NCBI GenBank assembly: GCA_016192845.1
Contig: JACPTI010000091.1
Location: 11,444-75,443 of the forward strand
DNA: 64,000 bases
DNA from: Acidobacteriota bacterium
GTDB lineage: Bacteria; Acidobacteriota; Vicinamibacteria; Vicinamibacterales; UBA2999
Reading direction: 5' to 3'
Each line of letters starts with the position of its first letter. Position 1 is the first letter of the stretch. Below the pieces are notes generated by a model that had not been told where the DNA came from, ran no database searches, and saw only the letters and a program-made list of their open reading frames with translations. The position numbers were made by a program, and so were the translations under genes. Positions 29,870-32,800 of this stretch are shown here, piece after piece.

Positions 29870-32800
29870 TCAGACGCCGACCGCCTCGTACGACAAATTT
29901 GCGGCCAGCCAGCGCTCGACGGCCGCCGTGCTCATCCCCTTGCGGGCGGCGTAGTCCTCGATCTGGTCACGGCCGACGCGCCCGACCGTGAAATACCGCG
30001 CCGCCGGATGGGCCAGATAGAGTCCGCTGACCGAGGCGGCCGGCACCATCGCGCAGCTCTCGGTCAGCGCCAGGCCGGCGCGGTCCGCCTGCAGCAGGTC
30101 GAACAGCTTCGGCTTTTCCGAGTGATCCGGGCAGGCGGGATACCCGAACGCCGGGCGGATGCCGCGGTACCGCTCCGCGATCAGGTCCGCGTTCGACACA
30201 TGTTCGTCGGCGCCATACCCCCAGTCGCGCCGGGCGCGCGCGTGGAGGTATTCCGCAAATGCCTCGGCGAGCCGGTCCGCCAGCGCCTTGACCATGATGG
30301 CGTGGTAGTCGTCATGGTCGCGCTCGAACGCCGCGACGAGCTCCGCCGCCCCGTGGCCGGCGGTCACGGCAAAGGCGCCGACGAAGTCGACGATCCCGCT
30401 GTTGCGGGGCGCGAGGAAATCCGCGAGCGACAGGTTGGGCGTCCCCTCCGGCATCCGCTCCTGCTGGCGCAGCATGTTGAATCTGAGGATTTCACGCCCA
30501 CGGTCATGCCCACGTACCACCGAGGCACCGAGACACCGAGATTCGTTATCAAAATTAGGTCTCGGTGTCTCGGTGTCTCGGTGGTCCGTGATCGGCATGA
30601 CCTCGGCGACCTCAGGGGCATACAGAACGATGTCCTCCCCGTCGGCATACGCGGGCCAGAAGCCATAGACGCCCCGCGGCGTGAGCAGCCCGTCGGCGGC
30701 AATCCGGTCGAGCAGCGCCCGCGCATGGTCGTACAGCTCCCGTGCGGCCGGGCCGTACTGCGGGTGCTCCAGGATGGCGGGGAAGCGCCCCTTCAATTCC
30801 CAGGCGGTGAAGAAGAACGTCCAGTCGATGTAGGGCACCAGGTTCTCGACCCGGACCTCGTCGACGAGGCGCAGCCCGGTGAAGGCCGGGCGCGCGACCA
30901 CATCCGGGCTCCAGTCGAGGCGCAGCCGGTTGGCGCGGGCCGCGCTCCACGGGAGCTGCGGCCGCGGCTTGAGCGCGGCGTGCTGCTGGCGGAGGCGCTC
31001 CTGCTCGGCGCGGTTGGCCGCGACGAACTCCAGCTTCTGCGCCGGGCTGAGCAGGCTCGCCACCACATCGACCGCGCGCGAGGCGTCGAGCACGTGGACG
31101 ACGGGCTGACTGAACTCCGGGGCGATCTTTACCGCCGTGTGCTGCCGGCTCGTGGTCGCCCCGCCGATCAGGAGCGGAATCGTGAAGCCGCGCCGCTCCA
31201 TCTCGCGCGCGACGAACACCATTTCGTCGAGCGATGGCGTAATCAGGCCGCTCAGCCCGACGAGATCCGCCCGCTCGTCGACGGCGGTCTGCAGGATGCG
31301 ATCGGCGGGCACCATCACGCCGAGATTGACGACCTCGTAGTTGTTGCAGCCGAGCACGACCCCGACGATGTTCTTGCCGATGTCGTGGACGTCGCCCTTC
31401 ACGGTCGCCAGGACAATCTTGCCGGGGGCGTGGGACGAGGCGCCCGCCCTGCGCTTGTCCTCCTCCATGTAAGGCAGCAGGTACGCCACCGCCTTCTTCA
31501 TCGCGCGCGCGCTCTTGACGACCTGCGGCAGGAACATCTTGCCGCCGCCAAAGAGGTCGCCGACGATCTTCATCCCGTCCATCAGCGGTCCCTCGATCAC
31601 GTCGAGCGGCCGCGCGAGCTTCCGCCGCGCCTCATCGACGTCCTGCTCGATGAAGTCGATGACGCCGTGCACGAGCGCGTAGGCGAGCCGGTCCTCGACC
31701 GTGCCGGATCGCCACGAGAGATCGTGCTCCTTGCGCGCGGCGGCCCCCTTGACGGTGTCGGCGAACCGGACGAGGCGCTCGGTGGCATCGGGCCGCCGGT
31801 TGAAGATCACATCCTCGACGTGTTCGAGCAGCTCGCGAGGAACATCCTCATAGACCGCCAGCTGGCCGGCGTTGACGATCCCCATGTCGAGGCCCGCCTT
31901 GATCGCGTGAAAGAGGAAGGCGGAGTGAATCGCCTCGCGCACGACGTCGTTGCCGCGGAACGAGAACGACAGGTTGCTGATGCCGCCGCTGACCTTCACG
32001 CCGGGGCAGGTCGCCTTGATGATGCGCGTCGCCTCGATGAAGTTGATGGCGTACTCGTTGTGCTCCTCGAGGCCCGTGGCGATCGCCAGGATGTTCGGGT
32101 CAAAGATGATGTCGAGCGGGTCGAACCCCGCCGCGTCGACCAGCAGGCGATAGGCGCGCTGGCAGATCGCCACCTTGCGCGCGACCGTGTCGGCCTGCCC
32201 CTCCTCGTCGAACGCCATGACGACCAGGGCGGCGCCGTACCGGCGCACGAGCCGCGCCTTCTGCAGGAAATCCTCTTCGCCTTCCTTGAGGCTCAGCGAG
32301 TTGACGATCGCCTTCCCCTGCACGCACTTCAGGCCCGCCTCGATCACCGACCACTTCGAGCTGTCGATCATGATCGGAAGCCTGGCAATCTCGGGCTCGG
32401 TGGCGATGACGTTGAGGAACGTGGTCATCGCCGCTTCCGAGTCGAGCATCCCTTCGTCCATGTTCACGTCGAGGATGTTGGCGCCGCCGCGGACCTGGTC
32501 GAGGGCGACCTCGGCCGCTTCGAGGAACTGCCCCGCCGTGATCAGGCGGGCGAACCGGCGCGAGCCGGTGACGTTGGTCCGCTCGCCGATCATGATGAAG
32601 TTGCTGTCGGGGCGAATCGTGAATGTCTCGAGCCCGGCAAATTGCGTGAATCTCTTCGGGACCAGGGATCCGGGATCCGGGATCCGGAGGTTCTTGGTTC
32701 GGGGTTCGGACCCCGGATCCCCGATCCCGGATCCCGATGCGGGCCGGGGGCGAGGCGGAAGGCCGTGTATCGCCTCGCCCACGGCCCGGATGTGATCGGG

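Follow-up and report, generated by a model that had tools for sequence, protein, structure and literature searches.

G-rich heptamer repeats have been described in Xanthomonas, where the unit is GGGAATC, and in Nostoc, where it is GGGGA(C/T)T (Rehm et al. 2015, PLoS One, PMC4692102). Between 89 and 93% of these GGGNATC heptamers are intergenic and 7–11% intragenic; four units are preferred, the length of the arrays varies between close relatives, and each genome contains 70–75 convergent pairs. Copies in coding sequence were left out of that analysis and no translated hairpins were described (PMC4692102). These repeats are the closest known system to an element found inside the metH gene of an acidobacterium, in the 64-kb stretch of DNA analysed here (the window). 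Both are built from 7-nt units in which a G3 tract is followed by four other bases, and in both, four is the favoured number of units in a tandem array (the modal length in 37 of 109 dispersed arrays, from a sample chosen for at least three exact units). Opposite-strand paired arrays, from which a stem-loop is possible, occur in both, most copies are intergenic with an intragenic minority (the class studied here being scored on metagenome loci), and unit number and sequence vary at the same locus between close relatives. The metH element differs in its host, in its unit, which is GGGATCC or GGGATCG with a GGATCC core that is itself palindromic, and in its position in the interior of an essential-type enzyme, where all of it is read in frame into protein.

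In this last respect the element behaves, by analogy, like the Rickettsia palindromic elements (RPEs), palindromic repeats that lie in frame in unrelated housekeeping genes and are translated and compatible with the protein fold (PMC10969869). The metH hairpin likewise sits in an intact housekeeping open reading frame (ORF) and is the only low-confidence loop in the protein model, between two well-modelled barrels. RPEs, however, are ~150 bp long and belong to defined families that each encode a conserved peptide (PMC10969869), whereas the metH element comprises 77 nt of tandem 7-nt words, is variable in unit number, lacks a target-site duplication, and encodes a peptide that is nothing more than its repeat unit translated in a cycle. 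REP and REPIN palindromes resemble it in being short, dispersed, hairpin-forming and mostly intergenic, and a REP-like palindrome of the window's genome (GTCCGGCTGAAGCCGGAC) fills the metH linker of one relative (L210). The arms of the metH hairpin are nevertheless tandem heptamers, and the GTAG/CGTC tetranucleotide head of the REP type is absent from it. Naturally split metH genes are a further parallel, as the same linker tolerates interruption there, but in those genes a stop and a new start give two proteins, while the chain in the window is continuous.

Structure and translation of the metH hairpin

The MetH protein, for which more than 8000 homologues were found, contains five Pfam modules in canonical order, namely Hcy, pterin, B12 cap, B12-binding and activation (PF02574, PF00809, PF02607, PF02310 and PF02965, all above their cut-offs). 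The initial annotation of this DNA had proposed an in-frame heptamer hairpin in the Hcy-to-pterin linker, and sequence, ORF translation and Pfam all bear this out. The hairpin spans 32659–32737 as ~11 in-phase heptamers on the coding strand and falls within the flexible linker between the two barrels placed by Pfam (Table 1). Read along the coding strand, four GGGATCC-type units are followed by three GAACCNN units and four CGGATCC-type units. On the plus strand the same DNA has the GGATCCG x3 / centre / CCCGGAT-type x4 structure that had been proposed, with the three GGATCCG units at 32666–32686 preceded by a degenerate unit from 32659, and the opposite arm made of CCCGGAT/CCCGATC-type units at 32707–32737.

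Table 1. Features of the metH gene and its hairpins (positions are those of the window)
Feature	Position	Strand	Evidence
metH, cobalamin-dependent methionine synthase, 1289 aa, intact ORF	29870..33739	-	ORF list and translation
Homocysteine S-methyltransferase (Hcy) barrel, PF02574, residues 16-323	32771..33694	-	Pfam; AlphaFold2 pLDDT mostly >90
Pterin-binding barrel, PF00809, residues 385-623	31871..32587	-	Pfam and AlphaFold2
DNA present here and absent from the sister lineage: 11 heptamers spanning 77 nt, a net difference of +75 nt (25 codons)	32661..32737	-	filled site vs L088 empty site
G-rich arm, coding strand: GGGATCC GGGATCG GGGATCC GGGGTCC	32708..32735	-	sequence, palindrome arms, TRF
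Centre/loop, three heptamers: GAACCCC GAACCAA GAACCTC; plus strand GGTTCTTGGTTCGGGGTTC	32687..32707	-	sequence, fold
C-type arm: CGGATCC x3 and CTGGTCC	32659..32686	-	sequence, palindrome arms, TRF
Other in-frame metH hairpin, CACCGAGA octamer arms, in the hot spot at residues 1042-1085	30518..30583	-	TRF, alignment

The arms of the hairpin are 31 nt long and 87% complementary, rising to 96% over the inner 23 nt, and enclose a 20-nt centre. TRF reports them as two period-7 arrays (32657–32687 and 32707–32736) of 4.3–4.4 copies per arm; because the centre also consists of GAACCNN heptamers in phase, the whole element amounts to ~11 units and 77 nt. The G-rich arm carries a G4 motif of four G3+ tracts (32708–32735) and the plus-strand complement of the C-type arm carries a second, making a convergent pair; G4 refers here to the sequence motif only (G3+N1-7 x4). 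With up to one mismatch, the 13-mer GGATCCGGGATCC occurs 8 times where 0.32 occurrences are expected, and 0 of 100 shuffles reach 8. The predicted RNA fold of the hairpin has an energy of -60.5 kcal/mol (z = -3.9), equalled by 0 of 200 shuffles. A search of Rfam with the hairpin gave no family at its gathering score, the matches being to generic miRNA-like hairpins at 17–31 bits, well short of the gathering scores.

The hairpin is in frame within the metH ORF and is translated, and the peptide previously reported for it was recovered. This insert of ~25 residues is rich in Gly, Ser, Pro and Asp and is written in the repeat's own codons, among them the rare GGA, CGA and GAT, and all six frames of the hairpin are free of stop codons. 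The AlphaFold2 model of MetH has a mean pLDDT of 90.3 and drops below 50 solely at residues 336–360 (32660–32734), which are modelled as coil and coincide with the insert, so that the insert is predicted to be a disordered bulge between the two barrels. The alignment of the protein to human MTR structures is interrupted exactly at this linker, where HMMER leaves 24 residues of the window's MetH unaligned. Measured as the GGCCGT..GERTN segment, the linker is 83 aa long, compared with 57 aa in the canonical form and 58 aa in the sister lineage; the excess noted initially is therefore real, while its size is 25–26 residues rather than ~24.

It had also been suggested that two hairpins account for most of the 62-residue excess of this MetH over that of E. 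coli, which we take to be 1227 aa long. When compared with a 1227-aa relative (P0053) the window's protein has 21 extra residues in the Hcy–pterin linker and 42 at residues 1045–1086, so the two sites hold nearly all of the excess and the suggestion stands.

The exact hairpin sequence is present in Logan contigs from four groundwater-metagenome runs, and neither a hairpin-free allele nor alleles differing in unit number were seen in these contigs. A variant with a 1-nt deletion at 32688 makes up 10–19% of the summed depth and may stem from other loci. RNA runs contained 5–6% of the sampled words, which gives no transcript evidence for the organism. Since Logan contigs break within the hairpin, where repeat copies from elsewhere add to the depth, we considered whether repeat DNA had been misjoined into metH during assembly or binning. 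However, the element is spanned by overlapping exact contigs from the four runs, with 0 differences, the reading frame is intact, and independent assemblies of relatives have homologous hairpins at the same codon positions, and we regard such an artefact as next to inconceivable.

Variation of the linker among relatives

Indel hot spots number just two in a comparison of 109 full-length homologues: residues 331–364 and 1042–1085, each the site of one of the hairpins. In the same comparison the remaining interdomain linkers did not vary in length, so the view that linkers tolerate anything is too simple. The sister lineage (P0037/L088), with ~90% amino acid identity overall, keeps the second hairpin and not the linker hairpin, and the two elements thus differ in age. 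A long linker conserved in hairpin-free relatives, which the initial annotation would have counted against its reading, was not seen: this nearest relative has a short, canonical linker segment free of hairpin and repeat. Comparison of the filled site with the L088 empty site revealed neither a target-site duplication nor terminal inverted repeats beyond the arrays themselves; the insert differs in length in every lineage, and the CCCG that flanks both of its ends is also present in the empty site. The repeat may have been inserted in the window's lineage, but loss from its sister is equally parsimonious because relatives within the same small clade carry full or half copies.

Across many phyla the GGCCGT..GERTN segment has its canonical 57 aa in 61 of 80 loci, and in five loci the gene is split at the linker by a stop followed by a restart (Xanthomonas chitinilytica, Rhodanobacter, Chitinophaga, Ferruginibacter and a Bacteroidetes MAG). 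Among the 120 closest homologues, from Vicinamibacterales, the segment ranges from 58 to 103 aa with a median of 71.5; some of these linkers have no repeat, and others contain GGGATC hairpins, heptamer arrays of other kinds or REP-like palindromes. Several classes of repeat-derived peptide are found in these linkers, including nested combinations such as LKPDTTY with ERSER. The content also changes quickly. Two genomes whose metH DNA is 92% identical have a heptamer hairpin in one case (L083) and a REP-like palindrome in the other (L210), and of 40 pairs of proteins with 93% identity or more beyond the hot spots just 4 have the same linker, all of them at least 99.4% identical; pairs at 93–97.6% identity elsewhere in the protein never do.

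Catalysis by MetH relies on large domain rearrangements, and extra length in this flexible tether might be adaptive by tuning how the modules move, which would fit a segment of at least 70 aa in 65 of the 120 closest homologues against the canonical 57. We find this very improbable, as the length and sequence of the segment are unconstrained and differ between near-identical proteins, AlphaFold2 models a featureless coil, and in some phyla the two barrels are separate proteins. A selected peptide would be expected to carry synonymous variation and was rejected because the codons of the insert are those of the repeat.

At the same site, six relatives have in their DNA GGGATC(C/G) hairpins that differ in loop and unit number, and two have half copies, one with the left arm only (L086) and one with the right arm only (L085). 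Every lineage that has the hairpin has a near-perfect stem, and in L082 the arm variants match across the stem, GGGATCG being paired with CGATCCC. By a hand count the window and L089 have 27 of the 28 nt of the G-rich arm in common, including the GGGATCC-GGGATCG-GGGATCC pattern, whereas four-fold sites in the codons flanking the hairpin are only 0.50–0.73 identical. As the arms are far more alike than neutral sites, neutral decay of a single old insertion is insufficient, and this likeness would require concerted evolution, repeated acquisition or a constraint on the nucleic acid.

Such a constraint could arise if the hairpin or the G4 motif were kept for a role in co-translational folding, as a pause, in metH mRNA stability or in transcription. 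The near-perfect and matched stems, the conservation of the arms beyond that of silent sites, the occurrence of the G4 motif on both strands, the position at a domain boundary and the ability of ORF-internal G4s to stall ribosomes (work cited in PMC4692102) are all in line with this. The role is nevertheless distinctly improbable, since the closest relative lacks the element entirely, in other relatives the site is taken by half hairpins, simple tandem arrays or REP-like palindromes, the bare 57-aa segment predominates in other phyla, and no Rfam family was matched at its gathering score. It is also rather doubtful that the linker and the 1042–1085 loop are a cassette site, at which hairpin repeats of several families would be inserted, corrected and exchanged by a hairpin- or single-stranded-DNA-directed mechanism; this would explain near-identical arms across lineages with saturated silent sites, and in that case the structure could also serve to pause translation where the two domains meet.

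Dispersal of the repeat and its retention in metH

The triplet (GGGATCC)x3 was found at 120 metagenome loci, none of which is metH, and tblastn of MetH against these loci gave no match, so the repeat is dispersed. Of the 88 copies that could be assessed by a crude frame and GC3 test, ~5 are genic and in frame. Most of the dispersed copies are lone arrays of 3–6 units without a partner. Among the 109 dispersed arrays, 16 have GAACC units on the 5' side of (CGGATCC)n and only 4 have them on the 3' side, and one unrelated metagenome locus (L178) has the same composite architecture as metH, a G-arm, GAACC units and a C-arm, which looks like a family whose copies may be related by descent. Of 12 tandem-word elements in the window, ~10 are intergenic or at the end of a gene, as mapped by hand from coordinates onto crude gene calls. 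The hairpin at 25198–25277 has in its centre GGTTCGNGGTTCGG, near-identical to the centre of the metH hairpin, and there is no second near-identical full-length copy within the 64 kb. A partial match at 26482 was discarded as a chance CCCGGATCC inside a neighbouring gene, with no array. A literature search on Vicinamibacter repeats returned nothing relevant.

The composite architecture at L178 and the orientation-specific tie between GAACC units and (CGGATCC)n would suit a true mobile element of the MITE or RPE type, inserted preformed and directed to the linker by a preference for sequence or structure such as hairpin-forming DNA. So would the arm variant pattern common to distant lineages despite saturated silent sites, the recurrence of different repeat classes at one site, nested combinations included, and the exchange of heptamer hairpin and REP-like palindrome between the two genomes with 92% identical metH DNA. 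We consider such an element unlikely: target-site duplications and terminal inverted repeats other than the arrays are lacking, unit numbers and loops vary by lineage as they would in DNA subject to slippage, most dispersed copies are partnerless arrays, and one targeting mechanism would not serve unrelated repeat classes. The study of Xanthomonas and Nostoc also links no transposase to such arrays (PMC4692102).

More probably the hairpin is a tolerated passenger, dispersed G-rich heptamer repeat DNA that happens to be translated in the MetH linker. The best reading of the sequences is that this repeat class would be common in Vicinamibacterales (Acidobacteriota) genomes, mostly outside genes, and that the metH copy would be one of its convergent pairs. 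The initial annotation had posed a choice between a high insertion rate filtered by selection and some form of targeting. The choice was well framed, and the data favour the selection filter as its better-supported side, because the repeat class lies mostly outside genes, unrelated repeat classes fill the same linker in relatives, the only two indel-permissive sites of MetH are the two hairpin sites, and other phyla split metH at exactly the same linker. Little is demanded of such a passenger. As 7 and 3 are coprime, every reading frame of a heptamer array yields one and the same cyclic peptide of 7 residues, and with no stop in six frames the sole need for survival within a gene is a total length divisible by three.

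As a tolerated passenger, repeat DNA of various kinds in the linker would appear, change in unit number, be half-deleted, lost and replaced, with a turnover probably faster than the 2–3% divergence of the remaining protein. Replication slippage may lengthen and shorten the arrays, and the inverted partner array may come from template switching or from the copying of another locus. The insert itself would be selectively near-neutral, with no function of its own. No process is known to us by which arrays of this type are formed or moved.

Implications for MetH and for repeat-rich genomes

Translated repeats of this kind break short-read assemblies, inflate depth and yield low-complexity stretches that annotation pipelines may misread. 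The locus also poses a puzzle about G-rich heptamer repeats, in that its arms are homogeneous while neighbouring silent sites are saturated. For the enzyme, the two sites in ~1230 residues amount to a natural insertion-tolerance map of MetH that is useful for the placement of tags or splits. For the organism, a repeat-rich genome keeps altering a permissive region of a central enzyme while MetH stays intact.

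Structure of the element and its place in MetH

The metH gene encodes a protein with five Pfam modules in canonical order, and its Hcy-to-pterin linker contains a translated hairpin of eleven heptamers in a single phase. The initial annotation had described an in-frame heptamer hairpin at this site; that observation is confirmed and its first reading supported, the peptide translation was as given, and the coordinates were short by a few bases on the low side. A repeat finder gives arms of 31 nt that are 87% complementary (96% over the inner 23 nt) with a spacing of 20 nt, while TRF recognises two period-7 arrays. 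A 13-mer from the element occurs 8 times with at most one mismatch, against 0.32 expected, and the RNA is predicted to fold at -60.5 kcal/mol (z = -3.9), which none of 200 shuffles equalled. The structure is therefore not due to chance. No family in Rfam matches the element.

Features of the metH region and related repeats (window positions unless residues are stated)
Feature	Position	Strand	Description
metH	29870-33739	minus	one unbroken ORF, 1289 aa
Linker element	32735 to 32659	minus	eleven heptamers, one phase
Element, first arm		coding strand	GGGATCC GGGATCG GGGATCC GGGGTCC
Element, centre		coding strand	GAACCCC GAACCAA GAACCTC
Element, second arm		coding strand	CGGATCC CGGATCC CGGATCC CTGGTCC
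Other in-frame metH hairpin	30518-30583	minus	
Hcy barrel	residues 16-323		Pfam
Pterin barrel	residues 385-623		Pfam
REP-like palindrome GTCCGGCTGAAGCCGGAC	13732-13877, 40814-40831, 41068-41085, 47085-47102		
Hairpin with related centre	25198-25277		centre GGTTCGAGGTTCGGG
GGCTTTG x4.4 array	33742-33772		junction of ArsR-methyltransferase gene and metH start
glnE	26879-29865		read as two ORFs (26879-29005, 28594-29865) that overlap in different frames
Glutamine synthetase position	34735-35400		short ORFs only

The HMMER alignment of MetH to the human methionine synthase structures 4CCZ and 9SSP falls into two blocks that break exactly at the element, leaving 24 query residues unaligned. AlphaFold2, run on residues 1-680 with an alignment of 67 rows, gives a mean pLDDT of 90.3 and a pTM of 0.90; pLDDT drops below 50 in residues 336-360 alone, a coil in the model, and these correspond to 32660-32734 and so to the element itself.

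Several features of the neighbouring genes were also recorded. The GGCTTTG array encodes the last residues of the ArsR-methyltransferase regulator. Every close relative carries a type III glutamine synthetase upstream of the ArsR-methyltransferase/metH pair, and it is intact (725-729 aa) in the compared loci L081, L083, L084, L086, L088 and L210 (positions 1-350), whereas the window shows nothing but short ORFs at the corresponding place. The reading of glnE in two frames suggests that a frameshift or a sequencing error lies in the linker joining its halves.

Variation of the linker among MetH homologues

Measured from GGCCGT to GERTN, the segment has exactly 57 aa in 61 of 80 loci drawn from many phyla, and 71 of the 80 fall within 57-60 aa. 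The window MetH has 83 aa there, and its 120 closest homologues range from 58 to 103 aa (median 71.5). Relative to the homologue P0053 (1227 aa), the window protein has 21 extra residues in the linker and 42 at 1045-1086, bearing out the initial arithmetic by which two insertions supplied most of the excess length. When indels were counted as stretches between conserved columns in 109 full-length homologues, only residues 331-364 and 1042-1085 varied by more than 5 residues, and these are exactly the two hairpin sites of the window metH. At five loci (L013, L017, L036, L044, L073), which come from Chitinophaga, Ferruginibacter, Xanthomonas chitinilytica, Rhodanobacter and a Bacteroidetes MAG, metH is split by a stop and new start exactly in this linker, within about 1780-2100 of each locus, which makes the Hcy module a separate gene and the barrels separate proteins.

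The content of the linker is as variable as its length. Among the 120 closest homologues the peptide GIGDPGS...RIPDPGS derives from GGGATC-type hairpins, ERPERS from other tandem repeats and VRLKPDTTY from a REP-like palindrome; the 7-aa period of PTPNSQL points to another heptamer array, PEGLRLP...GGLQASGP looks from its peptide pattern like another palindrome, and some linkers have no repeat. In the very long linkers of P0043, P0094, P0047 and P0061 repeats are expanded internally (EEPRT x4 in a loop, GLGTGDQ x4 in an arm, SGPSPEI x3, ERNSQSEV x2), so that loops expand as well as arms.

In a FastTree tree of 112 MetH sequences with the linker removed, the window protein adjoins P0037-P0039 and P0058, which are up to 90% identical to it and have a linker core of only nine residues, RRPQTRERF. 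The GGGATC class, as roughly assigned, requires 16-20 state changes on this tree. GGGATC(C/G) hairpins occupy the same codon positions in L081, L082, L083, L084, L087 and L089 with differing loops and unit numbers, while L086 has the left arm alone and L085 the right arm alone. The sister locus L088 has no hairpin, and its empty site reads CCCGCA-GA-CCCGGGAGCGATTC where the window has CCCGCA-(77 nt)-CCCGAAGAGATTC, a net gain of 75 nt; no target-site duplication was found between the two. The difference could be either a gain in the window lineage or a loss in the sister lineage. The sister lineage keeps the other metH hairpin, 7 residues shorter, and lacks the linker element, so the two have different histories. 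The metH genes of L083 and L210 are 92% identical in DNA, yet a heptamer hairpin fills this site in one of them and the REP-like GTCCGGCTGAAGCGGGAC in the other. Linkers are shared by only 4 of the 40 protein pairs that reach 93% identity or more outside the hot spots, and these are the four pairs at 99.4% or more.

Distribution of the repeat class and read-through

Copies in other genes were surveyed in the window itself and, as a proxy, in metagenome loci. About 12 tandem-word elements occur in the window, of which, by our own mapping onto crude gene calls, about 10 are intergenic or at the ends of genes and 2 are inside metH. The centre of one hairpin (GGTTCGAGGTTCGGG) nearly matches that of the metH element. 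The REP-like perfect palindrome, of the type found in relatives' metH linkers, has 14 strand-matches at ~8 window sites against 0.21 expected, and its variant GTCCGGCTGAAGCGGGAC at 13860 is the one in the L210 linker.

A scan of metagenomes for (GGGATCC)x3 returned at least 120 loci, with a G+C of mostly 0.6-0.7 in 60 of those listed and no metH among the 120 listed. Gene context was called by a crude composition test, in-frame copies requiring an open frame that runs on for 50 codons or more to each side and a GC3 and GC1>GC2 coding signature; by this measure ~5 of 88 assessable loci among the matches listed are in-frame genic copies. Array length among the matches listed peaks at four units; where GAACC units accompany a (CGGATCC)n array, they are on its 5' side in 16 cases and on its 3' side in 4. 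The three-part architecture of the metH element recurs at one unrelated locus, L178.

All six frames of the element are free of stop codons, which is true of only 3 of the 12 window elements tested. Whichever of the three frames of a strand is read, a heptamer array yields the same cyclic peptide of 7 residues; read-through demands only a total length that is a multiple of three.

Judging by the source names of its closest homologues, the organism belongs to the Vicinamibacterales, and reads place it in groundwater metagenomes. In runs X1-X4 the contig depth summed over 32651-32731 exceeds that of the flanks 10-20-fold, and Logan contigs stop inside the hairpin; near-identical GGGATCC arrays are present at many other loci of these metagenomes, and short-read assembly breaks at the repeat.

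Arm conservation and relation to known repeats

Between the window and its relatives, identity at four-fold sites of the flanking codons is 0.50-0.73, which is near saturation given a genome GC3 of ~0.9. By our count the G-arm of the window and that of L089, the most distant relative with a hairpin, share 27 of 28 nt, the GGGATCC-GGGATCG-GGGATCC pattern among them. Near-identical arms beside near-saturated silent sites indicate that the arms may be young, homogenised (through slippage or cross-stem correction), acquired anew from a dispersed pool, or under constraint as nucleic acid. Mainly because these four accounts compete, we regard the element as probably, and not more firmly, a tolerated passenger.

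Among described systems the nearest is that of the G-rich heptamers of Xanthomonas and Nostoc, GGGNATC-type units that are 89-93% intergenic, form 70-75 convergent pairs per genome, prefer four units, differ in length from one close relative to another and are without known function (PMC4692102); the element shares every testable sequence-level feature with them. In its effect on the protein it is like the Rickettsia palindromic elements (PMC10969869), but structurally it differs in having no fixed unit and no target-site duplication. The element is an unremarkable though clear-cut member of a repeat class that is known but unexplained, and the site that it occupies in MetH is hypervariable and permissive.
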